From contig CM082585.2 of the NCBI GenBank assembly GCA_040954595.2, positions 6,535,808 to 6,599,807 of the forward strand: a stretch of DNA of 64,000 nt. The letters run 5' to 3'. Under the pieces are notes generated by a model. That model was not told the origin of the DNA and did no database searches. It saw only the letters and a list, made by a program, of their open reading frames with translations. Below, one piece after another: positions 31,501 through 64,000 of the stretch (the stretch's first letter is position 1; each line of letters begins with the position of its first letter). The DNA comes from Balanoglossus misakiensis. Taxonomy: Eukaryota; Animalia; Hemichordata. The position numbers and the translations under genes were made by a program.

Positions 31501-34500
31501 GATTGACATTTTATTGTCAGTCATTATACAGATCTAGGGGAGGGGAGGGATTGACATTTTATTGTCAGTCATTATACAGATCTAGGGGAGGGTAGGGCTT
31601 GGCATTTTATTGTCAGTCATTATACAGATCTAGGGTAGGGCTTGACATTTTATTGTCAGTCATTACACAGATCTAGGGGAGTGGAGGGCTTGGCATTTTA
31701 TTGTCAGCCATTACACAGATCTAGGGGAGGGTAGGGCTTGGCATTTTATTGTCAGTCATTATACAGATCTAGGGGAGGGATTGACATTTTATTGTCAGTC
31801 ATTACACAGATCTAGGGGAGGGGAGGGATTGACATTTTATTGTCAGTCATTACACAGATCTAGGGGAGGGGAGGGATTGACATTTTATTGTCAGTCATTA
31901 CACAGATCTAGGGAAGGGGAGGGATTGACATTTTATTGTCAGTCATACAGATCTAGGGGAGGGGAGGGATTGACATTTTATTGTCAGTCATACAGATCTA
32001 GGGGAGGGGAGGGATTGACATTTTATTGTCAGGCATACAGATCTAGGGGAGGGGAGGGATTGACATTTTATTGTCAGTCATACAGATCTAGGGGAGAGAG
32101 GGATTGACATTTTATTGTCAGTCATTATACAGATCTAGGGGAGGGGAGGGATTGACATTTTATTGTCAGTCATTATACAGATCTAGGCGAGGGGAGGGCT
32201 TGACATTTTATTGTCAGTCATTACACAGATCTAGGGGAGGGGAGGGATTGGCATTTTATTGTCAGTCATTACACAGATCTAGGGGAGGGTAGGGATTGAC
32301 ATTTTATTGACAGTCATTACACAGATCTAGGGGAGGGGAGGGCTTGGCATTTTATTGACAGTCATTATACAGATCTAGGGGAGGGTAGGGCTTGACATTT
32401 TATTGTCAGTCATTACACTGATCTAGGGGAGGGGAGGGATTGACATTTTATTGTCAGTCATTATACAGATCTAGGGGAGGGGAGGGCTTGACATTTTATT
32501 GTCAGTCATTACACAGATCTAGGGGAAGGGAGGGCTTGACATTTTATTGTCAGTCATTACACAGATCTAGGGGAGGGGAGGGCTTGACATTTTATTGACA
32601 GTCATTACACAGATCTAGGGGAGGGGAGGGCTTGGCATTTTATTGACAGTCATTATACAGATCTAGGGGAGGGTAGGGCTTGGCCTTTTATTGTCAGTCA
32701 TTATACAGATCTAGGGGAGGGATTGTCATTTTATTGTCAGTCATTACACAGATCTAGGGGAGGGGAGGGATTGACATTTTATTGTCAGTCATTACACAGA
32801 TCTAGGGGAGGGGAGGGATTGACATTTTATTGTCAGTCATACAGATCTAGGGGAGGGGAGGGATTGACATTTTATTGTCAGTCATACAGATCTAGGGGAG
32901 GGGAGGGATTGACATTTTATTGTCTGTCATTATACAGATCTAGGGGAGGGGAGGGATTGACATTTTATTGTCAGTCATTACACAGATCTAGGGGAGGGGA
33001 GGGATTGACATTTTATTGTCAGTCATACAGATCTAGGGGAGGGGAGGGATTGACATTTTATTGTCAGTCATACAGATCTAGGGGAGGGGAGGGATTGGCA
33101 TTTTATTATCAGTCATTATACAGATCTAGGGGAAGGGAGGGCTTGACATTTTATTGTCAGTCATTACACAGATCTAGGGGAGGGTAGGGATTGACATTTT
33201 ATTGTCAGTCATTATACAGATCTAGGGGAGGGATTGACATTTTATTGTCAGTCATTACACAGATCTAGGGGAGGGGAGGGATTGACATTTTATTGTCAGC
33301 CATTACACAGATCTAGGGGAGGGTAGGGCTTGGCATTTTATTGTCAGTCATTATACAGATCTAGGGGAGGGATTGACATTTTATTGTCAGTCATTACACA
33401 GATCTAGGGGAGGGGAGGGATTGACATTTTATTGTCAGTCATTACACAGATCTAGGGGAGGGGAGGGATTGACATTTTATTGTCAGTCATTACACAGATC
33501 TAGGGGAGGGGAGGGATTGACATTTTATTGTCAGTCATACAGATCTAGGGGAGGGGAGGGATTGACATTTTATTGTCAGTCATACAGATCTAGGGGAGGG
33601 GAGGGATTGACATTTTATTGTCAGGCATACAGATCTAGGGGAGGGGAGGGATTGACATTTTATTGTCAGTCATACAGATCTAGGGGAGAGAGGGATTGAC
33701 ATTTTATTGTCAGTCATTATACAGATCTAGGGGAGGGGAGGGATTGACATTTTATTGTCAGTCATTATACAGATCTAGGCGAGGGGAGGGCTTGACATTT
33801 TATTGTCAGTCATTACACAGATCTAGGGGAGGGGAGGGATTGGCATTTTATTGTCAGTCATTACACAGATCTAGGGGAGGGTAGGGATTGACATTTTATT
33901 GACAGTCATTACACAGATCTAGGGGAGGGGAGGGCTTGGCATTTTATTGACAGTCATTATACAGATCTAGGGGAGGGGAGGGATTGACATTTTATTGTCA
34001 GTCATTACACTGATCTAGGGGAGGGGAGGGATTGACATTTTATTGTCAGTCATTATACAGATCTAGGGGAGGGGAGGGCTTGACATTTTATTGTCAGTCA
34101 TTACACAGATCTAGGCGAGGGGAGGGCTTGACATTTTATTGTCAGTCATTACACAGATCTAGGGGAGGGTAGGGATTGACATTTTATTGACAGTCATTAC
34201 ACAGATCTAGGGGAGGGTAGGGCTTGGCATTTTATTGTCAGTCATTACACAGATCTAGGGGAGGGTAGGGCTTGGCATTTTATTGTCAGTCATTACACAG
34301 ATCTAGGGGAAGGGAGGGCTTGACATTTTATTGTCAGTCATTACACAGATCTAGGGGAGGGGAGGGCTTGGCATTTTATTGACAGTCATTATACAGATCT
34401 AGGGGAGGGTAGGGCTTGGCATTTTATTGTCAGTCATTATACAGATCTAGGGGAGGGTAGGGATTGACATTTTATTGACAGTCATTACACAGATCTAGGG

Positions 34501-37500
34501 GAGGGTAGGGCTTGGCATTTTATTGTCAGTCATTACACAGATCTAGGGGAAGGGAGGGCTTGACATTTTATTGTCAGTCATTACACAGATCTAGGGGAAG
34601 GGAGGGCTTGACATTTTATTGTCAGTCATTACACAGATCTAGGGGAGGGGAGGGCTTGGCATTTTATTGACAGTCATTATACAGATCTAGGGGAGGGTAG
34701 GGCTTGGCATTTTATTGTCAGTCATTATACAGATCTAGGGGAGGGATTGTCATTTTATTGTCAGTCATTACACAGATCTAGGGGAGGGGAGGGATTGACA
34801 TTTTATTGTCAGTCATTACACAGATCTAGGGGAGGGGAGGGATTGACATTTTATTGTCAGTCATACAGATCTAGGGGAGGGGAGGGATTGACATTTTATT
34901 GTCAGTCATACAGATCTAGGGGAGGGGAGGGATTGACATTTTATTGTCTGTCATTATACAGATCTAGGGGAGGGGAGGGATTGACATTTTATTGTCAGTC
35001 ATTACACAGATCTAGGGGAGGGGAGGGATTGACATTTTATTGTCAGTCATACAGATCTAGGGGAGGGGAGGGATTGACATTTTATTGTCAGTCATACAGA
35101 TCTAGGGGAGGGGAGGGATTGACATTTTATTGTCAGTCATACAGATCTAGGGGAGGGGAGGGATTGACATTTTATTGTCAGTCATTACACAGATCTAGGG
35201 GAAGGGAGGGCTTGACATTTTATTGTCAGTCATTATACAGATCTAGGGGAGGGGAGGGCTTGACATTTTATTGTCAGTCATTACACAGATCTAGGGGAGG
35301 GGAGGGATTGACATTTTATTGTCAGTCATTACACAGATCTAGGGGAGGGTAGGGATTGACATTTTATTGTCAGTCATTACACAGATCTAGGGGAGGGGAG
35401 GGCTTGGCATTTTATTGACAGTCATTATACAGATCTAGGGGAGGGTAGGGCTTGACATTTTATTGTCAGTCATTACACTGATCTAGGGGAGGGGAGGGCT
35501 TGGCATTTTATTATCAGTCATTATACAGATCTAGGCGAGGGGAGGGCTTGACATTTTATTGTCAGTCATTATACAGATCTAGGGGAGGGGAGGGATTGAC
35601 ATTTTATTGTCAGTCATACAGATCTAGGGGAGGGGAGGGATTGACATTTTATTGTCAGTCATTACACAGATCTAGGGGAGGGGAGGGATTGACATTTTAT
35701 TGTCAGTCATTACACAGATCTAGGGGAGGGGAGGGATTGACATTTTATTGTCAGTCATTACACAGATCTAGGGGAGGGGAGGGATTGACATTTTATTGTC
35801 AGTCATACAGATCTAGGGGAGGGGAGGGATTGACATTTTATTGTCAGTCATTACACAGATCTAGGCGAGGGGAGGGCTTGACATTTAATTGTCAGTCATT
35901 ATACAGATCTAGGGGAGGGGAGGGATTGACATTTTATTGTCAGTCATTACACAGATCTAGGGGAGGGGAGGGATTGACATTTTATTGTCAGTCATACAGA
36001 TCTAGGGGAGGGGAGGGATTGACATTTTATTGTCAGTCATACAGATCTAGGGGAGGGGAGGGATTGACATTTTATTGTCAGTCATTATACAGATCTAGGG
36101 GAGGGGAGGGCTTGACATTTTATTGTCAGTCATTACACAGATCTAGGGGAAGGGAGGGCTTGACATTTTATTGTCAGTCATTACACAGATCTAGGGGAGG
36201 GGAGGGATTGACATTTTATTGTCAGTCATTACACAGATCTAGGGGAGGGGAGGGATTGGCATTTTATTGACAGTCATTATACAGATCTAGGGGAGGGTAG
36301 GGCTTGACATTTTATTGTCAGTCATTACACAGATCTAGGGGAGTGGAGGGCTTGGCATTTTATTGTCAGTCATTACACAGATCTAGGGGAGGGGAGGGCT
36401 TGGCATTTTATTGACAGTCATTATACAGATCTAGGGGAGGGTAGGGCTTGACATTTTATTGTCAGTCATTACACAGATCTAGGGGAAGGGAGGGCTTGAC
36501 ATTTTATTGTCAGTCATTACACAGATCTAGGGGAGGGTAGGGATTGACATTTTATTGTCAGTCATTACACAGATCTAGGGGAGGGGAGGGCTTGGCATTT
36601 TATTGACAGTCATTATACAGATCTAGGGGAGGGTAGGGCTTGACATTTTATTGTCAGTCATTACACAGATCTAGGGGAGTGGAGGGCTTGGCATTTTATT
36701 GTCAGTCATTACACAGATCTAGGGGAGGGTAGGGCTTGACATTTTATTGTCAGTCATTACACAGATCTAGGGGATGGTAGGGCTTGGCATTTTATTGTCA
36801 GTCATTATACAGATCTAGGGGAGGGATTGACATTTTATTGTCAGTCATTACACAGATCTAGGGGAGGGGAGGGATTGACATTTTATTGTCAGTCATTACA
36901 CAGATCTAGGGGAGGGGAGGGATTGACATTTTATTGTCAGTCATTACACAGATCTAGGGGAGGGGAGGGATTGACATTTTATTGTCAGTCATTACACAGA
37001 TCTAGGGGAGGGGAGGGATTGACATTTTATTGTCAGTCATTACACAGATCTAGGGGAGGGGAGGGATTGACATTTTATTGTCAGTCATACAGATCTAGGG
37101 GAGGGGAGGGATTGACATTTTATTGTCTGTCATTATACAGATCTAGGGGAGGGGAGGGATTGACATTTTATTGTCAGTCATTACACAGATCTAGGGGAGG
37201 GGAGGGATTGACATTTTATTGTCAGTCATACAGATCTAGGGGAGGGGAGGGATTGACATTTTATTGTCAGTCATACAGATCTAGGGGAGGGGAGGGATTG
37301 ACATTTTATTGTCATTATACAGATCTAGGGGAGGGTAGGGCTTGACATTTTATTGTCAGTCATTACACAGATCTAGGGGAAGGGAGGGCTTGACATTTTA
37401 TTGTCAGTCATTACACAGATCTAGGGGAGGGTAGGGATTGACATTTTATTGTCAGTCATTACACAGATCTAGGGGAGGGGAGGGCTTGGCATTTTATTGA

Positions 37501-38680
37501 CAGTCATTATACAGATCTAGGGGAGGGTAGGGCTTGACATTTTATTGTCAGTCATTACACAGATCTAGGGGAGTGGAGGGCTTGGCATTTTATTGTCAGT
37601 CATTACACAGATCTAGGGGAGGGTAGGGCTTGACATTTTATTGTCAGTCATTACACAGATCTAGGGGAGGGGAGGGCTTGACATTTTATTGTCAGTCATT
37701 ACACAGATCTAGGGGAAGGGAGGGCTTGACATTTTATTGTCAGTCATTACACAGATCTAGGGGAGGGTAGGGATTGACATTTTATTGTCAGTCATTACAC
37801 AGATCTAGGGGAGGGGAGGGCTTGGCATTTTATTGACAGTCATTATACAGATCTAGGGGAGGGTAGGGCTTGACATTTTATTGTCAGTCATTACACAGAT
37901 CTAGGGGAGTGGAGGGCTTGGCATTTTATTGTCAGTCATTACACAGATCTAGGGGAGGGTAGGGCTTGACATTTTATTGTCAGTCATTACACAGATCTAG
38001 GGGAGTGGAGGGCTTGGCATTTTATTGTCAGCCATTACACAGATCTAGGGGATGGTAGGGCTTGGCATTTTATTGTCAGTCATTATACAGATCTAGGGGA
38101 GGGATTGACATTTTATTGTCAGTCATTACACAGATCTAGGGGAGGGGAGGGATTGACATTTTATTGTCAGTCATTACACAGATCTAGGGGAGGGGAGGGA
38201 TTGACATTTTATTGTCAGTCATTACACAGATCTAGGGGAGGGGAGGGATTGACATTTTATTGTCAGTCATTACACAGATCTAGGGGAGGGGAGGGATTGA
38301 CATTTTATTGTCAGTCATTACACAGATCTAGGGGAGGGGAGGGATTGACATTTTATTGTCAGTCATACAGATCTAGGGGAGGGGAGGGATTGACATTTTA
38401 TTGTCTGTCATTATACAGATCTAGGGGAGGGGAGGGATTGACATTTTATTGTCAGTCATTACACAGATCTAGGGGAGGGGAGGGATTGACATTTTATTGT
38501 CAGTCATACAGATCTAGGGGAGGGGAGGGATTGACATTTTATTGTCAGTCATACAGATCTAGGGGAGGGGAGGGATTGACATTTTATTGTCAGGCATACA
38601 GATCTAGGGGAGGGGAGGGATTGACATTTTATTGTCAGTCATACAGATCTAGGGGAGGGGAGGGCTTCACATTTTATTGT
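28570..38680. repeat. ~10.1 kb tandem satellite/minisatellite, 48-bp unit with 45- and 43-bp variants, roughly 215 copies
   Basis: Consensus TTGACATTTTATTGTCAGTCATTACACAGATCTAGGGGAGGGGAGGGA, head-to-tail with no unique spacers and a BglII site (AGATCT) in almost every unit. Confidence 0.98.
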
Positions 38681-38777
38681 CAAAGTACAACAAGGGCAGG
38701 GTATGACATGGGTGGTGGTGTCAGTGGATATTGTACATGTATGTACATACCGGTATAAAAATGGTGTATTTCATCAG

Positions 38778-38921
38778 TAGTGTTCTCCCCAGAGCAATTA
38801 AAGTGTAGTGGCCACTACTTCTTATTTTTAGAAGACAATAGAACTTAATCAACATGAGAATTGTTTACATTGTTATGGATATAAGCAGTTATGCTATCAG
38901 AAATACCTGGGGAGAACACTG
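38778..38921. mobile_element. hAT-like MITE
   Basis: TAGTGTTCTCCCCAG ... CTGGGGAGAACACTG inverted ends. A related degenerate copy lies at ~12618-12720. No clear target-site duplication. Confidence 0.6.
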
Positions 38922-46000: not shown

Positions 46001-49000
46001 CTGCTAATCATAACATACGAGATGATATCTGGTATATATGGTAGTACTTGCTGGTAGTGTTATTGTGTTACACAGTTTAATTTCTTCATACAAAACTAAG
46101 CAATCACAGAGTGTCTCATCGGAAAAATATGCTCAAAATACTAAACCACGATAACTCTTGTCATGCTATGTATTTTGCCAATGTTTTGGAGAATAAGCAA
46201 TAATTATTATAGTTTAAGTAAAACAAATCACTTTTATTCAGTCCACAGCTCCCTAAAGCGCAAATTAACCTTTCAAACTAATATCATTCTGGTTGCTTGA
46301 CCAGTTTATCATACACATGGCTTTTTGACCGCAGTTTGCAGCAAGGAAGACGGTTTCGACCGAGTTGGACATGATGTAGTCAATGGGTGGGAAAATCGTA
46401 AATCCAGCACAGACGAGTGCTGTGAAGATTGCAAGAGTAACAGGCAGTGTGTCGCGTGGACTTTCAACAAAGATACTGGTGATTGTTGGTTAAAGGATGC
46501 AGTCCCCGATAAAACGTCAAACTCCATTGCGGTGTCGGGCGTCGTCGCAAGACCAGGTAAATCAAGCGTAGGGTAGGGGGACAACCGGGTAGGGTTAGGG
46601 CTTTTGAATTTTAGTTCCGGAGAATCACACAAAAGTTTTCCCCTTTTCCAGGTTCAAGGCCCGAGAACACCAACTATGTGCCGTCCGTATTTTCGGCCGA
46701 CCGCGACACCGCAGTCCAAATCTGCGACAGTCAACAAGGCTCCCTAGCGAAAATATTGAACAAAGACACCAACGATTACTTGATCAACGTCGTCGAAAGT
46801 TTCAGCATGAGGAGAGACTACCGTTTCCATTTCGACGGGAGACGATATCCTCACAAAGGAAACAATTGGAGGACCATTGATGGGGAACCGTTGACATTCT
46901 TTAATTGGGAATCTGGTGAACCGAATAACAGTGGTGGTAGTCAAGAATGTTTACTCCTATGGTGAGTTTTGTGAAGGTGCTGCGTGGTCATAATATATTC
47001 ATGTGTATTGAAATATTTGACGTCACTGTGAAAAATATTGTCTTTGAATGTTCTAACTACATCTCAACTAACAAGATCCTACCCAAGGATGAAAAAAGAA
47101 GTTTACACAATCATGCAGTTTTGCTACAAAGGGGGCGCTCCTCAAAGCAGTTTCTGTCATTGCTAGACCAAAACAAAATGATAAATATGTTGAGTGTGTA
47201 GGCTACATGTACTGAGCTGAGAGTTTTACGGAGTTTATCCCCAAATAGTTCCACACTGTCCCAACCCGACCCGACGACGGTGGTGGGCCATTTGTGTTTA
47301 TCCCTGACCTGGTCTTCTTTTACAATAGCTATATCGTTAGGGTTGAATTGTAGATTTGGGTTGGTGCCTTCTTTAATTCTACTTATAACTTTATATCATT
47401 TCTCAATGATACCAGGGAGAATATAATGGAATTTTCTGACTATTCGTGCAGTACACACAGCCATTACATCTGTCAGAAAGGTAAATGTTCTTAAATTGTA
47501 CATCTGTCTGGGTCCGTCCGCTGCAGAAATAAGTGTTACTAAAAACTATAAAATATGCATAAACAAAGACACCAATGCTTTAACATACGGTTATTTTGTG
47601 AATGTTTGGTTTTTAATATTATAATTGAAATAATTGTATAATGTATTTCATGGACTTATTGTAACTTAAACAGATGGCAAAGGAGAATGTTTTACAGAGA
47701 AACTTGCCAATGACTATCGTGGAAGAAAATCGACGACCAAAAACGGACACACGTGCCTTAAATGGACCAGACATTCTCATGGCAAGACTCCAGCAGCTTA
47801 TCCTAACCGCGGATTGGGCGATCATAATTATTGCCGTAACCCGGATGTTGACTCTGGGGGTGCTTGGTGCTATGTTTCTGGTGGAAGTAAACATTATGAT
47901 TATTGTGATGTTGGCCAACCGAAAGAAAGTTGCGGTGAGTGTTGTGACGTCATCATCATCATCATCATCACCACCATTGCCGTCGCCGCCACTACAAAAA
48001 CCACCACCACCGTGCTGACGGTGAAATAACTTACCCTAGTGACGCGATTTCATTCTCCTTGTTAGGCGGGAAAGACGAATGCTATCAAGACTCCAATGGA
48101 AACGACTATCGAGGTAAACTATCGAAAACGAAGAAAGGCTTCACCTGTCAGAAGTGGACCTCACAGACACCTCAAAGTCATTCGAGAACACCTGAAACGT
48201 ATCCCAATGGTGGTCTCGGAGATCACAACTACTGCCGTAACCCTGACAACGTACATGCCCCCTGGTGTTACACAGTCGATGGTGATAGATATGATTATTG
48301 TGACGTTGGAAATCCCGGAGATTGTGGTAAGGAAGCGATTTTTTGGCCACTGTCAGGATTTCGGACAGCCACTGATTGGCTGATCCGTCTGTATGACCTG
48401 GGTCACTGCAACTCGACTGTACTGAAATGGCGATGCAACGTCTAATAAGTGACTCTTGGCAATGTGAGTTTTTGTCTTGTCACATCAAGAGACTGGTACT
48501 TGCTGTGAAAATTTTAGTCGACAATTGGTCGAGGAATCTGTGATTGCTACTAAATACCTGTGCTTGATAAAACATTTTTGCAGAAAAACTTGGACCAGTC
48601 ATGGAAGGGAAGATGGTAGGTCTTAGTGCAGCATCGACAATTGTATCAACCAAACCCTTCACTCAACCCATCTCTGAAATCACCGTGTCTTTCTGGGTTA
48701 GAAGCACCGGAAGTGACTCGAGTACAGTGTTCGTTTATTCCTCGCCGTCTGTCGAAGATGACGTGAGTGTTCGAAATATTGGCAATATGAAAATCTATAT
48801 CAATGAGGTCCAAGGGGAACCGTCATTACTGGATGCGAATGATGGCTATTGGCATCAAGTGGCTGTCACCTGGCAGAGTGCAGATGGTACATGGCGGTTT
48901 TTCAAAGATGGCGTACTGATATCGTCTGGCGCTGGCTTTGAGACGGGACACCAAATTCAGCCCGGTGGTGTGCTGGTGGTTGGTCGTGGTCAAGATAAAC

Positions 49001-50179
49001 CAGGTGATGCTTGGTCTTCCGGTTACATTGAAGGTCACATGAGCAACTTTAACATCTGGAGCAGGCAACTGACAATGGGGGAAATGGAGACCTTGTCCAA
49101 GACCTGTGACGGTTCTATGACAGGTAATCTGATCTCTTGGAATGGTGATGATCTGAGTGTGCAACTGTCATCGCCTGGTAGTCTGCCGATTGAAGAAGCA
49201 GACACTTGTGGTAAGTGTATACCTCACATTGACCCAATCTGTAAGGAAATGTTACTTTTAAAGGACACTGGCGCACACAGATGCATAGATATTTCCAGAC
49301 CACTGACAGTGGCCGTTGCGATTTGTGAAGGTATGGTGAATTAAATGACCCATGATTTTGGAAATGGTATTAAAGTCGAACATGTCTATAGTGGCCAGTC
49401 GAGGGACATTGCTAAACTGTCCTTTATAGACAGGTGGCCTTTATATACAGGTCAATGAATGCACATGTATATTGCACAGGGAGAGTAACAAAGTGGCCAC
49501 TATACGGTATACTGGTTTGATTGTATTTCATGAATAATCTTCGGTAATTGATTGTTCACTCACAATAGGAAATCTTTGTTTGCATTTATATTTTACAGAA
49601 CCCGTGTTGTCTGGGCTTGATGGCAAAATGATTCAGTTTGATGGAGATTACACGTTGCAGTCCTTCAAAACATTACCTAAGCTGACCGATTTATCAGTGT
49701 GCTTTTGGTTTCAAATCACCGAAAATAATGGGGGCTGGTTCACCTTTGAGACACAGGACGAATACGTACTGGCATTTTGGCGCGACACTGAGCTGATGGT
49801 GCAGTCGGGCAATTGGAATGGCGAATCGCTCTCCGTCGACGACGGCCAATGGCATCACGTGTGTGTCACGTGGAAGTCCGCCGGCGGGCTGTGGCAGGTC
49901 TTCAAAGATGGCACCCTAGCTACCAACGGTGCTGGTCTCGGCGACAAATTTGAATTAGCCGCAGGAGGAAAGTTTATCCTGGGAGCATCGAGACAGTACA
50001 AGGTCAAAGGCAACATGGCGCTTTTTAATGCATGGGACCGGGTTCTCAGCAGTGATGAAGTCAGTGATGTGAAGTCTTCCTGTGATGGTGACTACGAGGG
50101 GAATCTGGTGTCATGGAAACAGGGTTTAGCACCACCGGAGAGCAAATACACGGCCAATTTTAGCCAATGTACCGGCTAG
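40020..50179 (+). CDS. Secreted ADAMTS/reprolysin-like (M12B) metalloprotease with PAN/apple, C-type lectin, two kringle and two pentraxin domains; 20 exons, ~1303 aa
   Basis: Exons: 40020-40097 (signal peptide MEGVKQLMTLTILLFVQRSTVFS); 40586-40640, 41011-41151, 41370-41527, 42547-42724 (propeptide, RRRR furin site); 42957-43114, 43306-43392, 43770-43900, 44215-44340, 44633-44749 (catalytic domain: IYMELMVAVD, YKHPS, GLAYVGVMC, HEMSHTLGLSH); 44862-45048, 45518-45622, 45900-45963 (ADAMTS disintegrin-like Cys-rich); 46335-46556 (PAN); 46652-46961 and 47416-47480 (CTLD, WESGEPNN); 47674-47934 and 48066-48326 (kringles, NYCRNPD); 48584-49210 and 49599-50179 (pentraxin, WHHVCVTW). They sum to 3912 nt in frame. 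Confidence 0.88.
44753..44790. repeat. (TGTA)n microsatellite
   Basis: Run of gtat units directly after a splice donor. Confidence 0.9.
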
Positions 50180-51044: not shown

Positions 51045-54000
51045 TTAACTTTCATTGTGCTTCAAAAAGTTAATGGCTATTCTTAATGTACAGACTGGTA
51101 CAGGCTTTTGCCATCCTATTTCATTGCCAAATGTGGCCAGAGTGATACACTCTTCAATGACCAAATGGTTAGATTTCACCAGAGTTGACATCTCAGACAT
51201 AATCCTGTCATTTATTCCAGAAGCAATCTTTGAGAAAATTACTATCGTAAAGGAATGAAGACTGATAGGCTTAGCCTTCTCAAGGAGAGTGTTGACATAT
51301 GACTGGATTCCATCACACATTGATGACTCAGTAATAATGAGTTTTAGTGTGAAATGTTTCACACTTCTAGACCATTGCTGGTTTGGTATTAGACACGTCA
51401 AATCAAAAGGTCCCCATATACGCAAGTATAAAAATAAGTATTCTATATGTCTGACTTGCCTTGTGAGAATCAATGCATAATTTGCCAGGTTGTGAGTAGA
51501 CACACCAGTTTCGAATTCTGTGACACTGCTACACATATTCAATGCCTTCACAAGATTCGCAGTGTTATCAGCTGTGTCTATGAGATCACACCCTTGGATG
51601 TAAATAGAATTTAACACTGGACTGGAAGATTTCAAAGCAGATAGCAACCATGCTGGAAAGCCTTCAGTATGAAGCAACATGAATTTTCTTGTTTGTTTAC
51701 AGTTCTGGATAAACCGACTTAGTGAATCAATTTGTGCATCATTCATATCAATGTACTGGTATAATAATACTAGAGACACACACTCTGGACTTTTTTCTAT
51801 AAGTTTGTCAAATGGTAATGGGACTTCACGGCACAGATACTCCACACCCCACTGAAAATTCTGCAAATGTTTGTTGGAACTAACACTTTGGAATAAACGA
51901 GTGATAGCCTGGGCACATGTTTCTGTGTTCACCAGTTCATCTCTATGTAATGATATAAATCCATAGAAGGTATTCAAATGCCATCCTCTGTTCAATGCAT
52001 TTGCTATTCGCCAAATTGATTTTAAGGTATCACAATGCAATGCCACTGATGTTAAACAAATGCAATGTTCAGTTATTTCCTTAATTACCTCTGTGAAGAA
52101 ATATGATCTGCCCCGATGCTGTAAATATAAATGTTTGATGCCTTGAACACTGTCATTGTTCTGAGCCATGCTATTCAATAGACTAATTACCTGCCAAAAC
52201 GTTTTCTGGCTAAGTGTACATGCACAATACAGGCTACTCTCTATGGCATTTCTTGCATCATGATTGAACATATCATAATTATACCAACCACTATAAAAAT
52301 TATAATCAAATTCACCATCATGTAGTATCAAATGATTTGGCATAAATGGTGCTAGGTGTTCAATTTTGATATTGGCTTCAAATAAACACTTGCAAATGAT
52401 TGTAAATTCATCTGTGATGTCAAAGCCATCCTGACTACTATACTTACTTTGCATTGTCTTCTCAATCAGAAGTTTCATAAAAGGTTCTGCTTTCTGTTTT
52501 AAGATGCCAGCAACAAACAGGCAAACCTGTTTTTCTCTTATAATACTTTCAATGGCAGACTCTGATCCAACACTACCAACAATGTTGCTGATATGCAAGG
52601 CAGTGAAATATTCAAGCCAGGTTTTATGGTAGAAAAAGCAACCAGTCTGCAACTTGATTCTAGAAATTCCAGTATCTCTCACTAGTAAGCCCAGTGACAG
52701 AATTGTTTTGCTGACAGAATTTTCATCTATCATCATAGACCCTTGTGAATATACATCATATGCAACACTAGCTAATGCAGCCACTTCATCATTTAAATCA
52801 TTTGGTATGCTATCAGTCAATTCCCTGTTATTCTTGCAACAGAATCTCTTCAAAATACAGTCCAAAATTTCAGAATAAATGTCAGTCAAATTATTCTTGG
52901 GGATGGTTTTCTTCTCTTCCCAAAGCAGACAAACAAATGCTAAATGTAAGGGATTACATAGCAGATCTCGCTTGATGTTGACTGCAGTGTCTATATCCTC
53001 CTCCTTCTTCTTCTCCTCCTCCTCATCATCATCATCATGATACCATGGCTTACCGTCAGACTCTTTAACAATATCAAGGTTTAACTCTGAAACAAGACTC
53101 TCCACTTGGTTTACTCTCTGACTAAAATACTTGTGTATATAGTCAATTGCATCTTTTGTTGAAAAGCCTTTAATTCTGAAGTATGCCTGACAATCTTTGA
53201 GAGCTTCATCACATTCATGAGGTCGTGTTGTTGTGACAACTGTACACCATGGCAACAATTTCTCTGAGATAATAGGAAGTATGTCTGATTTCTCTCTGGA
53301 TGTTGATGTAATTTCATCTAACCCATCAAATAAACACAGTACTAAATTTTGATTTTGTTCAATGTAACCATAAAGATCCTGTTTCTTGATTTTGGCATCC
53401 CTATGAAGTAACTGATGGAAGATGATGTCATCTAATCTCTTTTTGTCAGAAACGTGTCTCATTTCTAAGAGAAACAGAAGTTTGAATTGTGGTAGTTTGC
53501 CCTGTGCCCAATCATATGCTAGCTTCCTGCAGAATGTTGACTTTCCCATTGCCGGAGCCCCCTCAATTCTGATTCGACTGCAAATTAACTGTGGATCTGT
53601 CTCTTTAATTATGTCATGCTCACTTGTGAGAACGCTCCCTTCTTCAAAAAGTTGTCTTCTGTCAGTTTTGATAACTCTCAGTTTCGTGTAGACTTCAGTG
53701 AGACTTAGAGATACACTTTCGTTCCACGGAATTGGTCTGAAATCGTTGAAGTGTCTTGTATACTTTTGTTGTAAATGTTCTATCAACCAATGTATGCTTC
53801 CTGAAACCAAAATTGGGAATAAAAAAGAAGCATTAAAGCGATGAATGACACCACAGTACTCACACTTCATGCAAGATCGATTCATGAGGGATTACAGAAA
53901 TAATGTGTTCAAGTCAGCATTTTGAGTATCAATACAGTAATGCAGTGAACATACTAGAATGAACAGTACTCTGGCACGCTGCGATTGCAACTGAGGTTCG

Positions 54001-57000
54001 TGATTGTACAACACTAGTACCCGGGGGTACACAGCTGAATCTTTCAATCAATGGCAACGCGTCCATGTAAAATGTCTGTAATCTCTGATACATTGTATTT
54101 TGGTTACCTGATACATTTCGTGGCTGATTGGGATGGATCAGTTCAACCAGATCATATCTCCCAATTCTACGAAGTAAGTCTGACAGCAAATCTGTTTTGT
54201 CTTCCCCAATGACATTTCTGTCAAGTAACTTCTCAAACAACTTTGTAGCAAGTTGAATTCCTTCAATTTCTCTCTTTGGTATTCCCGTTGATTCCATGTT
54301 TCTGCACAGGAATTTCATGGATTCAAGTTCATCTGTAATGGTAATTACACAACACAAACTTAATCTGTGAGTTTTTTGTCCCAGAAGAACCAACTGGTAT
54401 ATAATACACACCTTTCGTTTTCTTTTATGGGGCTACATTTTTATGTGTAGCCCTATAATTTTACACCATTTTATAATTCCTTATAGTAAATTTTCACCCA
54501 TTACCTGACCAAACATGCGAGTGAACATAGCCTTCATATAAGGACTTAATTCGCACCCTTATTTAGGGCCTGGTCAGAATTAACAGAGGGGGAAGGCTAG
54601 TGCGATTCGAAATCTGAATGCATGAAAAATACTGACCCTCCACTGATTTCTTGCACAAAAAATGCTGACCCTCCCCCTTCTCCATGAACAAAACCAAGTG
54701 ACCCTCCCCACAGTACGTGAAATATCCCATGATTCATTCTGATTTCAGTCAAACCAGGCAAAGTTCATATGTGTAGAGAAAATTGTAGACCACTAAACAG
54801 CGCTCCCATGAAAAGAATTTGAAACTGATGTACCATTCCCTCATCAGTGGGTATTCTGTGTTGGCAGACATAGTAAACAAAAAAATTGAAGGGGGTTAGA
54901 AAATTTTATAAAATACAGAGCTCAAAGGTGCATTTTAATGAACCAAAAAGCAAATTAACTCAACTACCTGTATGTTGGGGAGGGTAAATTTAACATTCGC
55001 CGCTCAAAGTTAGCATGGGGGGGGGGGGCAAGTCCCCGGACCTGGGACGTTAGATAAACCAATCAATGATTGAAAGGTGTTGATGAATGAAGGGGGTGGG
55101 TGTGAGGGGGTGTCCCCCTCCCACATTAGAAAAAAATGAATTATGAATGGTTCAAAACTGCATATTTTAGGACTCAAAACATTTTCGGTGTCATCCTTGC
55201 ACAAAAATTAGTGACCCTCCCCCTGACTCGTGCCCAAAATGCAGCGGCCCTCCCCCAAACTGTTGCATGAAAAATAGTGACCCTCCCCCCAATCGCACCA
55301 GCCCTCCCCCCCCCCCCCCCTGTTAATTCTGACCAGGTCCTTACATGTGCCTATAGCTGCTTGCTGGCATGCAGGGTATTAAACACCACTGTTAGCAGTT
55401 AATTGGTGTATGGTAGGTACAATTGCATGTAACACCACCATCATAACAATAGTTTATAGTCTGTTATAACTAATACAATCCACTTACCCTGTCCTATTTC
55501 ATCTGCTATTCTGAGAAGTAACCCAATAAAATGATCTTTACTTCTTTTAGTGTAACTTTCAGTGGCTTGTATCTCCTCTGTCCCTTTAAAATTGAAATTT
55601 GGAGAAACACGTAAATGTTTGAAAAGATTAACCTTTTTAAGTCAATGCACATCATAGTCAGAGCTGTGAGGAACATTTATGCTATCTTGTAATTCCCACT
55701 CCAACACTTAGCTCTCCCTTTATATCCAGGTTCAACATTTTATTGGCTACTTTTAAGCTTCAACTATACCAGCCACAGCCCTGAATTATAAGTTATCATT
55801 TTTTAAATACCTGTGCGTGCCTCCTGTATATTTGGTATCTGTATTTCATGAGCCCATTCGGAGAGTTGATGCTTAAATTTTGTACCGGTATATTCATGGT
55901 TATATTTCTCATGATGTAACAGTGCATCATAGTGTCCTGTACTGAGCCAACTGATGTAGATATCACGTGTAGGACTTTCACCATGTCTTGGACTGTGTAA
56001 ATGAAACCTTGGTTCTCCTCCACTGTTCATACCACTAACCAATACATGTATATTAACACACAGACTGTGGCTTAAAGCAACAATTTCTGTTGACCCAGCC
56101 CACACACCATCCATGGCAGCTCTTTGTAGGAAATTCGATGGATCTCCTTCAATTGCATGCTCAAACTGGGGTAGGTTTTGGTTGAGGTATCTCACAGCCT
56201 CTTGTCTGAGACTGTCATGTTTAGACTGATCGCCGTACCCGGATTCTGCAATGGCACGATAAAGACAGTTTCCATCTGGAATAATGTTGTATCTGTACAA
56301 ACCATGGCTTTGTAAGAATGCATCCTGTATTTCCTGTTCTCGGACAGTTTTGTCACCACCAAGTCTCTGACACAGGGTTTTGATGGATTCTTTAGGTGTC
56401 CGCAGCATATGGAAAATCTCTGTAAAGTATACATGATAGTTCATTATGTCATATAGTAATTGAAAAAAAAACTACTTGTGGCCGTACGTTTATATGTACG
56501 ACGTAACCTATAAAGTAGTAAGACATGGTGACTTGCCTTCAATATTAAACTTTCAGGAGTTTCTACAGGACAAAATATTGTTTTTATTCAAAATTTACAG
56601 TCTGACCAAATACATGAGAGGTTCAAGGGTCAGTGCCAGACTCCTCCAACATCGTCGTCACATCATCATCATCATCATCATCATTCATTATCATCATCAT
56701 CATTAAACAGTCACACATAAAATAACTTGGTTCCACTATAAATGCTGCCCTCAGTCAGCTAACTGCCCAAATGTGCCAGCTCTGGACCCAGGGCCAACCC
56801 AGTTTGGCAAATTTCATGTGCATACAAAAGTACATCAACATTTCGTGCTATATAAACAATAGTACTGGCTACAAAACATTTGACAAACTACATATTAAAC
56901 AATATGGCAACTGGCTATCATTGCACCAACTCATCTTTTGTGCAGTGATTGCAAATAAAAATCTCGATCTGTTGTGTTGCATAATTAAACTAAGCTAAAC

Positions 57001-60000
57001 TTTCATTTCTCAATATCAGTTAAAGGGGAAATCCGTTGTAGCTGATTTCCACATAATTTGGTAGCTTTGAGGTCACTCTTTCAGAAAAAAACATATTCGC
57101 CATGTATAAGTCGCGCGATTTTTTACAAAGTCTAGGGAAAGTTGGCAGAATTTCCAATATGGCGTTTACTCTAATTTGAATCATGGGAAAAAAAGCGCCA
57201 GGACCAACTTCCGCCCACCATGGTGTGGGTGATACCATTCTCCGATTGGTGTCACTGGGCGACAGACTAGGCGTATTTTCATAGCTATTGTTTGTTCTTT
57301 GCATCAGTTGATAAACAATCATCAGCAAAGTTGAAAATTTGTCATCTATTGACAGTTTTCATGAGCTATAACCCATGAAAAAGATGCAAATACGCTTAGC
57401 CTGTGACGCAGTGACACCAATCGGAAAATGGTATCACCCACACCAAGGTGGGCGGAAGTTGGTCCTGGCGCTTTTTTTCCCATGATTCAAATTACAGTAA
57501 ACGCCATATTGGAAATTCTGCCAACTTTCCCTCGATTTTGTAAAAAATCGCGCGACTTATACATGGCGAATATGTTTTTTTCTGAAAGAGAGACATCAAA
57601 GCTACCAAATTATGTGGAAATCAGCTACAACGGATTTCCCCTTTAAGTTTAATATTTACCTGGTGTATTTCCTCTTGTCACAGTTGTTGGTATTTTGTCT
57701 GGTGTAGCAATCTGCTCATACTTTCTTTTTTTAGGTTGAATATGTTCTGACTGTGGCCTCACTGATGCTTCACTTTGTTCAGATGAATAAGTGCCAGAAG
57801 ATTGGCCCATTTGCTGTAGTTGCTGCACTGGTGGCAGTTGTGAGAAATGTTGTTGGCATGGCAATGGTTGTGGTTGGAAGGTCTGTGTTGGCATTGGTGA
57901 TCCATGTTGCATTGCCTGGCTCTCTGAAGACTGGTGTTGCTGTATTGGTATTGGTTGAAATGAGGGTTGTTGACCACCAGTTACTCTAGATAGCGTTGAC
58001 TGATGTAACTGTTGTGGTATTGAAGATTGGGCCTGCTGATCCCGTGCCTGTGACGTCGACTGCAGCATCCCATGTTGCATTGCCTGGCTCTCTGAAGACT
58101 GGTGTTGCTGTAATGGCATTGGTTGAAATGAGGGTTGTTGACCACCAGTTACTCTAGATAGCGTTGACTGGTGTAACTGTTGTGGTATTGAAGATTGGGC
58201 CTGCAGATGCCGTGCCTGTGACGCTGACTGAGGTATCCCATATTGCATTGCCTGGCTCTTTGAAGACTGGTGTTGCTGTAATGGCATTGGTTGAAATGAG
58301 GGTTGTTGACCATCAGTTACTCTAGATAGCGTTGACTGGTGTAACTGTTGTGGTATTGAAGATGGGGCCTGCAGATGCTGTGCCTGTGATGCTGACTGAG
58401 GTATCCCATATTGCATTGCCTGGCTCTTTGAAGACTGGTGTTGCTGTAATGGCATTGGTTGAAATGAGGGTTGTTGACCATCAGTTACTCTAGATAGCGT
58501 TGACTGGTGTAACTGTTGTGGTATTGAAGATGGGGCCTGCAGATGCTGTGCCTGTGATGCTGACTGAGGTATCCCATATTGCATTGCCTGGCTCTTTGAA
58601 GACTGGTGTTGCTGTAATGGCATTGGTTGAAATGAGGGTTGTTGACCATCAGTTACTCTAGATACCGTTGACTGGTGTAACTCTTGTGGTATTGAAGATG
58701 GGGCCTGCAGATGCTGTGCCTGTGATGCTGACTGAGGTATCCCATGTTGCATTGCCTGGCTGTCTGACAACTGGTGTTGAAGTGGCCGAAATGAAGACTG
58801 TTGACCACCAGTTATTCTAGATAGCGTTGACTGATGTAACTGTTGTGGTATTGAAGATGGGGCCTGCAGATGCTGTGCCTGTGATGCTGACTGAGGTATC
58901 CCATGTTGCATTGCCTGGCTCTCTGAAGACTGGTGTTGCTGTAATGGCATTGGTTGAAATGAGGTTTGTTGACCATCAGTTACTCTAGATACCGTTGACT
59001 GGTGTAACTCTTGTGGTATTGAAGATGGGGCCTGCAGATGCTGTGCCTGTGACGCAGACTGAGGTAACCCATGTTGCATTGCCTGGCTGTCTGAAGACTG
59101 AAGTGTCTGCTCTTGGGGGTGGCTACTTTCGTCCTAAAAATGAATACATGTATGTACAAATTGTGAAACAAACCGAATACTCTGCTCATTTTCTCATGGT
59201 GTAGATACATAAATACACACTAACATGGTGATCGAATATCTGCAGTCTCTGTTCTGCCTGGAAACTTTTCTAAATATGCACTTAATATTTAATACATTGT
59301 ACCTTAATTCTCACTGCAGATAGCCCTGGCTGGTGTAACTGTTGTGGTATTGAAGATGGGACCTGCAGATGCTGTGCCTGTGATTCTGACTGAGGTAACC
59401 AATGTTGCATTGCCTGACTGTCTGAAAACGGGTGTTGTAGTGGTGGAAATGAGGACTGTTGACCATCAGTTACTGACATATCTGGTTGCCACGGGTAATT
59501 GTGCTGCAATGATTCGGTTGTCTGCTCTTGGGGGTGGCTACTTTTGTCCTAAGAAATGAATACATGTATGTACAAATTGTGAATACTCTGCTCATTTACT
59601 CATGGTGCAGATACATAAATACACACTAACATGGTGATCGAATATCTGCAGTCTCTATTCGGCCTGTATCTGGAAACTTTTATAAATATGTACTTCATAT
59701 TTAATACATCGTACCTAATTAATTCTCACATACAGCTACCATAAACCAGCCACAAAACAAACAAAAACGGTTTTAGTTTTCTGGGGTTCACTTTTGAGAG
59801 GTTTTGCAGTAGTCTTGAAAATACATTAGCAGAAAAGGATACATATCATAGATATGATGCAAAGATTTAAACAAATTTAAGTTTACTGCAGATGACCATG
59901 TTGAGATTTTTATCAATTATTGATGTATGATTTGTCTCACTGACTTCTATGAGAAAAATACATCTTTGGCTCCACCACATGAAAAAGGTAATTAATGTTA

Positions 60001-60043
60001 ACTGTCTGAAACAAAATGCTAATACCTGTGAATACTGTTCCAT
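51045..60043 (-). CDS. NLR-like protein: Gln-rich repeats, OTU deubiquitinase, death effector domain, NACHT and divergent LRR-like region; 7 coding exons, ~1803 aa
   Basis: Minus-strand exons: 60043-60026 (ccaacATGg start, MEQYSQ), 59548-59315, 59133-57660 (repeats), 56419-55811 (OTU: IIPDGNCLYRA ... SWLSTGHYDAL), 55583-55488 and 54332-54108 (DED: FIGLLLRIADEIGQDELESMKFLC ... RIGRYDLV), 53800-51045 (Walker A GAPAMGKST, Walker B LCLFDGLDE, sensor-1 VVTTTRP, NPLHLAFVC, winged helix FYHKTWLEYFTA). All junctions are GT-AG and phase-compatible; total 5412 nt. The start codon and the joining into one transcript are inferred. Confidence 0.8.
54566..55340. mobile_element. PIF/Harbinger-type MITE in the intron splitting the DED
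   Basis: TTA-GGGCCTGGTCAGAATTAACA ... TGTTAATTCTGACCAGGTCC-TTA (3-bp TTA duplication), with subterminal TGACCCTCCCC repeats. Confidence 0.8.
57020..57646. mobile_element. Foldback Kolobok-like element with ~260-bp inverted arms
   Basis: TTAA-AGGGGAAATCCGTTGTAGCTGATTTCCACATAATTTGGTAGC ... GCTACCAAATTATGTGGAAATCAGCTACAACGGATTTCCCCT-TTAA. The mirror-image ORFs 57020-57328(-) and 57428-57646(+) show the arms are near-identical. Confidence 0.88.
57895..59095 (-). repeat. Coding tandem repeat, 168-bp/56-aa unit, 7 full copies plus a partial
   Basis: MQ(H/Y)GIPQSASQAQHLQAPSSIPQQLHQSTLSRVTDGQQPSFQPMPLQQHQSSKSQA repeated in ORF 57649-59079. The one shorter unit (53 aa) keeps the frame. Confidence 0.95.
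59101..59730. repeat. Local tandem duplication of an intron end plus exon start (~59104-59314 vs ~59519-59729)
   Basis: tgtctgctcttgggggtggctacttt-gtcctaa-aaatgaatacatgtatgtacaaattgtga ... aattctcac is present twice, about 415 bp apart. Confidence 0.9.
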
Positions 60044-60793
60044 GTTGGTATCCCAGGTATGAACTCTTCTTGGAGATTTTTTTCCTTTTCTTTTTCTTCT
60101 TCATCGCCTCCTTTTACTTTTTGGCTAACTTTAAATACTCAGAGTTACTCTGATTCAGTAAATGACGATCTGTAGTGTTTGTTTTCCTGTCAAGAGAAGA
60201 TGTTAAAAAATTTACAGACAGAGAATAAAATATTCAGAGATTTCAAACGACTTATCAATCCTTTAAAGTTTGACAGCTTTGTCTATTGACATAAAGAAAA
60301 TTGGGTTGGGTGGAGGTCAAAGGTCTTGAAAACAAATAATCTACTGTTCGCGGCTAACATTATTGCAGCCGTGGGATCAGATATGGGTTGACAGTCCCCA
60401 GTTACTTGCACTTTCCGGACGGGTTGTTTTTGTGAATGTATTGGATGTTCTTGAATATAGAAAAAGGTATAATGCTTTCTTTTTATTTCACACGTTTCTT
60501 TTTCAGTTTTTTTTCGGCTGAACGTTCCTGAATATTTCAATGACGTACTCAAGACTTATGATGAACAAAGTTAATCACACTGCAGCGAATACCATGAGTA
60601 CAAACGCAATAACAAGTGAATATTTGCACGTCAGTCATAATACTCCGGCTTTCAGAAGTATAACACAGATTCAGCCTTTCAGAACTACACGATAAATCAA
60701 TACATTCTTCTGTTGTACTGTACCGATACATGGGGTCAAATCGACTTGATAGGTTTTCAAGCAGGCGTCCTCGGGGGCTTGTGATCTTATCAT

Positions 60794-62298
60794 ACTATAG
60801 TCTAGTCAATATAGGGCTAGACCCACCACAAATTTGAAACATAATTTTTTTCTTCAAAATGCATTTTGGAGAGGTGTCTAGAACAACATATTAAAAATGC
60901 ACCTGAATCCACCTTGTGGAAATATGTCTAATTTGCATAAATTTAATATTGGAGATTTTTGGGCCAAATATCAAGAAATAAACGTTTTTATTCCATGATT
61001 TTAAAATTTAAAACTATATCATGTTCATGAAGAAACATTTTGGAATAATATTTGGCATGGGCAGTTTTCATGATTTGCATAAATTCAATATGGCGGACAG
61101 TATTCCTAAAAACACATATCTGGGCAGTATATAGGGTACTACGCAAATTATTTTAGTGTTTTTTAATTCAAAATTACCTCTATGACATTTGGAACAATTT
61201 TGAAATTATTTTGTTTACATTTGCAATTTATATTTTCCATAAATCCAACATGGCCACCAAATGAATGTTCGACAGCTTATCATACTCCGGCATATATAAT
61301 AAGGTTGTAGCATAGAAAATATGTTGTAGCACTAGGAATATATACAAAAGAGAATGAAAAATGATTCCAGATTCAATCATATACTGAAAAAGTAGGTCCA
61401 AGTTACAGCTAATGGAGTAAAAACTAGTAAGGTAACATCTCAGTTCATTTAACAGATGTTCGTGTAACCAATTCGCCAGAATACGTTTCAGCTGATTTTT
61501 AAGACTTAGATATATGATCTAAAATTTATTTTCGGAGATAAAGTACGACTAATTATAATAAGTTAAACAATAATCTACAATCGTCATTTAATTGACATTT
61601 TAATACTATAGGAAGTATATCGTTAGACCGATTACTATACAGGTTTAAGGAAGTCATGTGATTATAATTATTTGTTGCATTGCTATTATATTTTCGTTTT
61701 ACATATTAATGTACGAGAGTTTTATATTTGCTTCGCTACGCATTCCTAGTGCTACAACATATATTCTATGCTAGAACCTTATTATATATGCCGGAGTATG
61801 ATCAGCTGTCGAACATTCATTTGGCGGCCATATTGGATTTATGCAAAATATAAAGTGCAAATGTAAACAAAATGTTTTCAATATTGTTCCAAATGTCATA
61901 GAGGTTGTTTTTTAATTAAAAACACACTAAAATAATTTGCGTAGTACCCTATATACTGCCTAAATATGGTTTTCTAGGAATACTGTTCCGCATATTGAAT
62001 TTATGCAAATTATGAAAACTGCCCATGTCAAATATTATTCCGAAATGGTTCTTCATGCACATTAAATATTTTTAAACTTAAAAATCATGGAAAAAATCAT
62101 GTTTATTTCTTGATATTTGGCCCAAAATTTTCAATATTAAATTTATGCAAATTAGACATATTTCCACAAGGTGGATTCGGGTGCATTTTTGATATGTTGT
62201 TCTTGACACCTCTCCAAAATATATTCTGAAGAAAAAATTTCTGTTGCAATTTGTGGTGGGTTAGGTGCCCAAATCTCGTAGATTGACTAGACTATAGT
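60794..62298. mobile_element. ~1.5 kb foldback DNA element with ~545-bp imperfect inverted arms
   Basis: The left arm 60794-61338 (actatagtctagtcaat ... gttgtagcactaggaat) is the reverse complement of the right arm 61742-62298 (attcctagtgctacaac ... attgactagactatagt). ~400-bp AT-rich spacer, no transposase ORF. Confidence 0.88.
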
Positions 62299-63674: not shown

Positions 63675-64000
63675 TTAAAGGACACTGGCGCACACAGATG
63701 CATAGATATTTCCACTGACAGTGGCCGTTGCGATTTGTGAAGGTACGGTGAATTAAATGACCCATGATTTTGGAAATGGTATTACAGTAGAACCTGTCTA
63801 TAGTGGCCAGTCGAGGGACATTCCTAAACTGTCCTTTATAGACAGGTGGCCTTTATATACAGGTCAATGAATGCACATGTATATTGCACAGGGACAGTAA
63901 CAAAGTGGCCACTATATACTGGTTTGATTGTATTTCATGAATAATCTTCAGTAATTGATTGTTCACTCACAATAGGAAATGTTTGTTTGCATTTATATTT
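63675..64000 (+). repeat. Direct duplicate of 49258-49592, running off the window edge
   Basis: ttaaaggacactggcgcacacagatgcatagatatttcca ... ctcacaataggaaat-tttgtttgcatttatattt matches almost base for base, including non-MITE flanks. Offset 14417 bp. Confidence 0.92.

Follow-up and report, generated by a model that had tools for sequence, protein, structure and literature searches.

The locus described here raises the question of whether an animal receptor of the NLR type (nucleotide binding, with leucine-rich repeats) can carry a ubiquitin-removing enzyme of its own and, if so, what becomes of the enzyme inside the receptor. It lies on the minus strand, from position 60043 to position 51045, of a 64,000-nucleotide stretch of the genome of the acorn worm Balanoglossus misakiensis (contig CM082585.2; this whole stretch is called the window). 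A sequence-only reading had proposed that seven exons join here into a protein with Gln-rich repeats, an OTU deubiquitinase domain, a death effector domain (DED), a NACHT domain, and a divergent leucine-rich repeat (LRR)-like tail. This order was confirmed for the predicted protein by the reading frame and Pfam matches, with the LRR solenoid recognized in a predicted structure. Judging from its sequence, the locus is a real gene and very probably a single one, and its product is likely an acorn-worm immune sensor that joins a ubiquitin-removing domain to a cell-death signaling receptor. Our leading interpretation, to which we give about even chances, is that the OTUD1-type OTU domain of this OTU-DED-NACHT-LRR receptor would act as a tethered deubiquitinase, trimming ubiquitin from the receptor's own complex, and that the domain is a pseudo-enzyme in relatives. 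The new and most valuable point is the split, inside one clade, between an intact catalytic site and Cys-to-Ser versions of it.

The gene model consists of one frame of 1,803 amino acids (5,412 coding bases with a single terminal stop) assembled from coding exons at 60043-60026, 59548-59315, 59133-57660, 56419-55811, 55583-55488, 54332-54108, and 53800-51045, all on the minus strand. GT-AG signals are present at all six introns, of which introns 1 and 2 are in phase 0 and introns 3 to 6 in phase 1. By frame and splice signals, the junctions proposed earlier (57660/56419, 55811/55583, 55488/54332, and 54108/53800) had the right coordinates. With a crude custom splice score, the donors of introns 3 to 6 ranked 4, 26, 1, and 7 of 520 GT sites, and the weakest acceptor, that of exon 5, ranked 167 of 641 AG sites. 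Exon 4 (55811..56419) encodes a complete OTU domain, exon 5 (55488..55583) a linker and DED helix 1, and exon 6 (54108..54332) the remainder of the DED with an RYDL motif. Each of these units thus occupies one symmetric phase 1-1 exon, an arrangement that would be the usual signature of exon shuffling. Exon 7 (51045..53800) encodes the NACHT domain, helical domain 1 (HD1), the winged helix, HD2, and the LRR region; its TAA stop is at 51047-51045, and an AATAAA signal is at 50867. Exons 5 and 6 must join because DED helix 1 is on exon 5. Junctions 5/6 and 6/7 are gap-free in comparison with the related models P0121, P0002, and P0125, with gaps at 6/7 of one residue in P0123 and two residues in P0122. 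Junction 4/5 falls in a variable linker, and junction 3/4 is spanned by P0003 alone among the family models. Acorn-worm RefSeq models are colinear with the window gene across junctions 4/5 to 6/7.

Toward the N terminus, exon 1 is a candidate (60026..60186, minus strand, acceptor at 60187, in-frame ATG at 60043) placed by frame and splice signal, with no homologue. Exon 2 (59315..59548, minus strand) is rich in Gln, Ser, and Pro and has an alternative donor after 59303 that is likewise in frame; in a self-comparison of the window, it duplicates the first part of exon 3 along with the intron that precedes exon 3. Exon 3 (57660..59133, minus strand) carries Gln-rich tandem repeats with a 168-bp (56-amino-acid) unit (7.2 copies with 93% matches at 57902-59100) and ends in a KKRK basic patch. 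Because exons 1 to 3 have no significant homologue among six family proteins (best E value of 0.13), junctions 1/2 and 2/3 are drawn from frame and splice signals alone. The first 575 residues of the predicted protein (24% Q, 17% S, and 10% P) are likely disordered. An amyloid or RHIM-type signaling role for the repeats was rejected, as the model has no [IV]Q[IVLC]G motif, which we take to be the RHIM-like core, and no Pfam RHIM match, and the repeats are Pro-rich. An upstream ATG at 60104 in exon 1 (60104-60026, minus strand) gives a frame of 29 codons before a stop when joined to exon 2 or 3; with exon 4 as the direct splice partner, it opens a 1,254-amino-acid frame with a polybasic N terminus followed by OTU, DED, NACHT, and LRR regions. 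An isoform starting there and lacking the Gln repeats is possible on the basis of these frames.

We consider it very unlikely that the OTU exon belongs to a separate Gln-rich-OTU transcript or to a pseudogene and that the fusion is an artifact of the gene model. Two Ptychodera flava models (P0001 and P0150) do end after or just past the OTU exon, an AATAAA signal is present at 55744 in intron 4, and the exon 5 acceptor is the weak one noted above. However, the intron between the OTU and DED exons is only 227 bp long with matching phases, 5.4 kb of coding sequence contains no stop, and the OTU and DED are joined in five models from two other species (P0002, P0003, P0121, P0122, and P0123).

The OTU domain of the window (Pfam OTU E value of 6.7e-17, above the curated cutoff) is of the OTUD1 type, as the sequence-only reading held, judging from trees, structure matches, and a fold overlay. 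Human OTUD1 was its best solved-structure match (5e-35; the next was 1e-9, with eight chains matched), and the predicted fold was superimposed on OTUD1 structure 4BOP at 2.0 A with a template-modeling (TM) score, by target, of 0.88 to 0.89. It fell with chordate OTUD1 with support of 100/100 in a 22-row OTU tree in which the Cys/Ser column was masked and with support of 80/82 in a 68-row tree. The proposed catalytic residues are all encoded on the minus strand (Asp at 56276-56274, Cys as TGT at 56267-56265, His at 55934-55932, and Asp at 55928-55926). The DGNC and GHYD motifs are intact, and the Cys-His-Asp triad and oxyanion loop are kept. The window domain shares with chordate OTUD1 the triad, the Cys loop, the His loop (LSTG in the window versus LSNG in OTUD1), and the WAG arm.

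Conservation was gauged in 52 columns whose conservation across 18 chordate OTUD1 rows reaches 85% or more. Of these, 43 are kept in the window domain, within one column of the chordate range (44 to 52), whereas related copies with Ser at the catalytic position keep 32 to 36. In the arm at 351-385 (human numbering, anchored on what we take to be C320), 12 of 14 columns are kept in the window versus 3 to 7 of 14 in the Ser copies, and IEGD and DGxWAG-xx-E are retained. This arm presumably lines the distal-ubiquitin site, as in OTU-ubiquitin structures. Many sites, not one, therefore look maintained for catalysis in the window copy. The Cys and His loops form a conserved S1' face in OTUD1, according to PMC3705208.

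The window domain differs from chordate OTUD1 in being fused into an NLR and in lacking the C-terminal ubiquitin-interacting motif (UIM). The corresponding helix, which reads DEELAxxM/L in two tunicate rows of OTUD1 and in those of human and fish, is missing from the model and from all seven relatives by a looser pattern and by alignment, which were counted in place of a stricter UIM pattern that matched nothing, human OTUD1 included. In the model, the OTU domain runs through a short linker into the DED. In OTUD1, the C-terminal UIM is required for K63 specificity and full activity, and the UIM-less enzyme is less active and nonspecific (PMC3705208). The K63 preference that had been assumed from OTUD1 can thus not be carried over.

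This bears on the mechanism first put forward, in which oligomerization would strip K63 chains and turn NF-kB survival signaling into DED-caspase death. Intact catalytic residues and a DED nearest to those of FADD and caspase-8 are consistent with it, as is the removal of K63 chains from NF-kB factors by OTUD1 described in PMC9360000. There is, however, no basis for a K63 preference without the UIM, and relatives with the same DED-NACHT arrangement lack the catalytic Cys. Moreover, mammalian OTUD1 restrains NF-kB, the caspase-8/FADD complex II, apoptosis, and necroptosis, and its loss raises complex II and death in mammalian cells (same source). The survival-to-death switch is weakened by this suppressive role and by the missing UIM, and we regard it as quite unlikely.

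By sequence comparison, the OTU-DED-NACHT architecture is that of a small acorn-worm NLR subfamily and not a one-off. Automated RefSeq gene models with this architecture were found in P. flava (XP_070536456.1, XP_070537049.1, and XP_070532842.1) and Glandiceps talaboti (XP_077991469.1), and a further P. flava model, XP_070532830.1, has an OTU and a DED and then ends at Walker A. The best identity of the window protein to any match was 47% over exon 7 (XP_070536456.1). These relatives share the domain order and the NACHT clade of the window gene but carry Ser in place of the catalytic Cys, and their 351-385 arm has decayed, whereas the window gene has the Cys, an intact arm, and the 575-amino-acid Gln-rich repeat region.

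An exon 7 search returned 30 matches, in four of which an OTU domain precedes the DED (P0121, P0123, and P0002 from P. flava and P0122 from G. talaboti); the OTU domains of P0121 and P0123 were missed by Pfam but are visible in the sequence. P0125 belongs to the same NACHT clade and is modeled without an OTU domain. Among the best 120 of 258 OTU matches, taken from the longer proteins, the top three were P. flava models, XP_070532842.1 among them, and the rest were vertebrate or unnamed OTUD1-like proteins. A search with the OTU region of XP_070532842.1 gave three matches among 122 candidates. Scanning 1.84 billion representatives, one protein for each 50% cluster, without a profile gave 2,440 matches, of which the best 150 were considered; NACHT was present in 1 of 49 scanned matches, mostly chosen by length from these 150. 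Among the matches listed, the OTUD1-type proteins that could be assigned a name were those of vertebrates, hagfish, tunicates, and amphioxus. A free-standing OTUD1 from an acorn worm or echinoderm was not recognized among the best 120 of 258 (proteins of at least 353 amino acids) or the best 150 of 2,440, which is weak evidence. In the ESM Atlas, we found only generic NACHT clusters with scores of at most 0.84, none with an OTU domain.

The one NACHT-containing match in the scan, P0284 (JGI/IMG, ENA; 2,142 amino acids), is an unnamed, bacterial-looking metagenomic protein with an N-terminal NACHT and one or more C-terminal OTU domains, an independent NACHT-OTU fusion. A horizontal origin of the acorn-worm gene from a bacterial NACHT-OTU protein was rejected, as P0284 has the reverse order and a different OTU domain that matches the window OTU at an E value of only 3e-10. 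Among weaker matches, P0178, P0210, and P0197 have an OTU domain fused to a MULE transposase or a Helitron replicase. They are not the nearest relatives of the window domain in the 68-row tree, from which P0210 and P0284 were omitted.

The catalytic Cys is replaced by Ser in all seven related OTU domains (six from P. flava and one from G. talaboti), which have DGNS or DENS at the position of DGNC in the window and OTUD1. The site is intact only in the window copy, which is nested among the Ser copies. In a 31-row NACHT tree, the OTU-bearing NACHT domains and P0125 formed one clade (97/91), with the window sister to P0121, P0123, and P0125 (100/98); a 16-row tree of a longer NACHT region gave the same groupings at 87/88 and 99/97 and rejected a clade of the other five NACHT domains excluding the window (approximately unbiased test P value [p-AU], 0.006). 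In the masked 22-row OTU tree, the eight NLR-type OTU domains formed one clade (96/97) inside the group shared with chordate OTUD1, the window domain joined P0150, P0001, P0121, and P0123 (90/82), and a clade of the seven Ser domains was marginally rejected (p-AU, 0.045). These trees suggest a single entry of the OTU domain into the NLR family, carried by a symmetric phase 1-1 exon, followed by two or three losses of catalysis in other lineages, which would retain the domain as a noncatalytic binding or bait surface.

A different history, which we consider rather unlikely, is that the fused ancestor was already a Ser pseudo-enzyme and that the window lineage regained Cys by one base change, either reactivating the domain or neutrally. 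The nesting of the window among Ser genes, at the two p-AU values given above, is consistent with such a regain, which would also account for the constancy of Ser. On the other hand, the window copy keeps IEGD and DGxWAG-xx-E as well, and the Ser lineages lost these by three separate routes (a deletion of 6 to 7 amino acids, WTK, and CPG), with none of their seven copies having an intact arm. Such differing decay fits repeated loss, which we moderately favor over one loss and one regain.

Several observations weigh against our leading interpretation. With the catalytic Cys absent from all seven relatives, the family as a whole does not conserve catalysis, which favors a binding role. One loss and one regain (two steps) would be a shorter path on the 22-row OTU tree than three losses. 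In the 68-row unmasked tree, the window falls as sister to the six P. flava Ser rows rather than among them (97/86), and the long branch from Glandiceps is left without a placement. One species supplies six of the seven Ser copies, and two of these models, P0001 and P0150, have neither a DED nor a NACHT. Finally, the anti-death role of OTUD1 is known from mammalian cells and the full-length protein.

Because catalysis is dispensable at the family level, the chief competing reading is a bait or binding role. In its bait form, the OTU domain would be a target for a pathogen factor directed against host deubiquitinases, and its binding or modification by this factor would trip the NACHT-DED module, with the window copy an active "guardee" and the Ser copies decoys. 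The pattern known from plant NLRs with integrated domains (NLR-IDs) is that such domains lose catalysis. Relatives in two genera all lack the nucleophile, with the fold-preserving substitute Ser in every case, yet retain the Cys loop (10 to 11 of 13 conserved columns) and the His loop (6 to 8 of 10) while the 351-385 arm decays. Yet the window copy retains the full ubiquitin-binding arm, and the LRR region, not the OTU domain, evolves fastest in comparison with P0121 (36% identity versus 56% for the OTU domain and 54 to 65% elsewhere). Because all seven relatives lack the catalytic Cys, the decoy alternative raised by the sequence-only reading gains support at the family level; we regard bait as possible, although not probable. 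What the family likely documents is the conversion of an enzyme into a noncutting bait or binding module. By analogy with Cys-substituted deubiquitinases that are reported to keep residual ubiquitin-esterase activity (bioRxiv 10.64898/2026.10.20.760496), the Ser copies may not be wholly inert. In that study, replacing Cys by Ser in a bacterial deubiquitinase abolished isopeptidase activity, whereas esterase activity persisted at a reduced level.

A broader form of the same idea is that acorn worms captured an OTUD1 gene wholesale into an NLR and that one clade records the passage from integrated enzyme to decoy, the window copy being the active "guardee" that survives, whereas the Ser copies would keep only the active-site face, as bait for microbial factors attacking the deubiquitinases of the host. 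We offer this tentatively and think it improbable; if true, an NLR of an animal would be guarding the ubiquitin system along the route taken by plant NLR-IDs.

Both the DED (PF01335; 2.1e-14) and NACHT (PF05729; 2.8e-26) exceeded the curated Pfam cutoffs, and the best Protein Data Bank matches of the DED were those of FADD and caspase-8, the kind of DED first suggested. In exon 7, the NACHT domain (53118..53573, minus strand) has its Walker A motif at 53561-53535; the domain leads into an acidic insert, HD1, the winged helix, and HD2. GAPAMGKST, LFDGLDE, TTTRP, and FYHKTW, which we take to be Walker A, Walker B, sensor-1, and the winged-helix His motif, are all present as claimed. The exon 7 fold, predicted with a 31-row alignment (mean predicted local distance difference test score of 78.6; predicted TM score of 0.72), had NLRC4, NOD2, and NLRP3 as its best Foldseek matches (E values of 2.6e-25 to 8e-23 over about 1,000 aligned columns). 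Its C-terminal tail is supported by this model as a divergent LRR-type solenoid (51138..52334, minus strand) of 14 strand-helix repeats spaced by 26 to 37 amino acids, with no Pfam LRR match at an E value of 1 or less; surveys based on LRR profiles would miss such receptors. The model thus has the NACHT motifs, the death-fold effector domain, and, in the predicted structure, the LRR solenoid of an animal NLR. It shares the NACHT-HD1-WH-HD2-LRR fold with vertebrate NLRC4, NOD2, and NLRP3, at 12 to 17% identity and with TM scores of at most 0.53 for full-length rows, but it has a DED in place of a CARD or PYD and carries an extra enzyme domain.

In NLRs generally, the LRR region senses, NACHT oligomerizes, and DEDs recruit a DED caspase or an adaptor, and ubiquitin editing controls NLR, NF-kB, and caspase-8 complexes. 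On this precedent, the LRR region of the window protein would sense a trigger, NACHT would exchange nucleotide and oligomerize, and the clustered DEDs would recruit a DED caspase or FADD-like adaptor. The UIM-less OTU domain would be weak and not linkage specific; lacking the UIM, it would therefore gain its targeting from proximity, by being held in the complex. The likeliest effect would be a built-in brake or threshold on activation, which is more probable than a death switch because mammalian OTUD1 restrains the pathways named above.

An OTU-bearing DED-NACHT-LRR receptor lies latent in RefSeq already and is apparently undescribed. The novelty first claimed thus stands in that we found no published description, and it falls in that the architecture already exists in uncharacterized RefSeq models of two acorn worms. 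No publication on an OTU-bearing NLR was found in the literature searched, which lay mostly outside subscription papers and outside supplementary architecture tables that may list one. The papers found there that combine NACHT, OTU, death effector domain, and deubiquitin were, by title, all mammalian reviews. A term search found no "OTU" in the main text of PMC8662601, PMC8195603, PMC10210618, PMC11508797, PMC2575513, or PMC3879445. Section 7 of PMC8662601 is likewise without it, and one TIAMMAt supplement file has neither OTU nor PF02338, although NACHT architecture tables may be elsewhere.

Three comparable systems may be set beside the window gene. Add-on modules of animal NLRs include the BIR domains of NAIP and the protease bait of NLRP1; HEPN-NLRs likewise have an extra N-terminal module (PMC8662601). 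For the invertebrate DED-NACHT proteins of amphioxus, sea urchin, and Nematostella, an engagement of DED caspases that needs no ASC-like hub has been proposed (PMC2575513); like the window gene, they join a DED directly to NACHT(-LRR), but the main text of that paper names no OTU domain or other ubiquitin enzyme. Plant NLRs with integrated domains also have a host protein domain built into the receptor, with activity that may be lost; the window gene differs in having NACHT instead of NB-ARC, a deubiquitinase, and intact and Ser versions in one clade. To our knowledge, the deubiquitinase in known systems is a separate, recruited protein. In the predicted protein, it is hard-wired between the low-complexity N-terminal region, or "tail," and the DED. 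Since intact and Cys-to-Ser versions share a clade, comparing them offers a ready natural experiment as to whether a domain integrated into an NLR serves as effector enzyme or bait and how enzymes become pseudo-enzymes; the OTU domains, at about 150 amino acids, are easy to assay.

A 263-bp inverted repeat (95%) resembling a miniature inverted-repeat transposable element (MITE) lies in intron 3 (57020..57646) according to the repeat comparison of the window, and a MITE-like element of about 1.5 kb with 560-bp inverted arms (89%) is just upstream of the NLR gene (60794-62298). A 336-bp repeat (94.6%) occurs at 49258-49593 and 63675-64000, 14.4 kb apart, reaching the acceptor of a pentraxin exon at the window end; parts of it recur at 13830-13962 (136 bp) and 10052-10129 (78 bp). 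It may mark either a haplotype present in duplicate or a tandem duplication unit that includes the complete NLR gene. No NF-kB-like site was found near the start of the NLR gene in a promoter motif scan. A motif resembling the interferon-stimulated response element (ISRE), GAAANNGAAAC / GAAAAAGAAAC, is present at 60504-60494 (minus strand), about 300 bp upstream of the exon 1 acceptor; four such motifs occur in the window versus 0.82 expected, and 3 of 100 shuffles reach four, which is too weak to use. The tail-to-tail neighbor at 46654-50179 (plus strand) encodes a C-type lectin domain, two kringles, and two pentraxin/LamG domains and, from this content, is likely a secreted recognition protein. 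Farther away, a long G-rich satellite at about 29000-38800 (GC skew of 0.38 to 0.43) gives repetitive open frames, and the plus strand carries an exon of Med12 at 7462-8160 and a C2H2 zinc-finger gene at 24011-25372.

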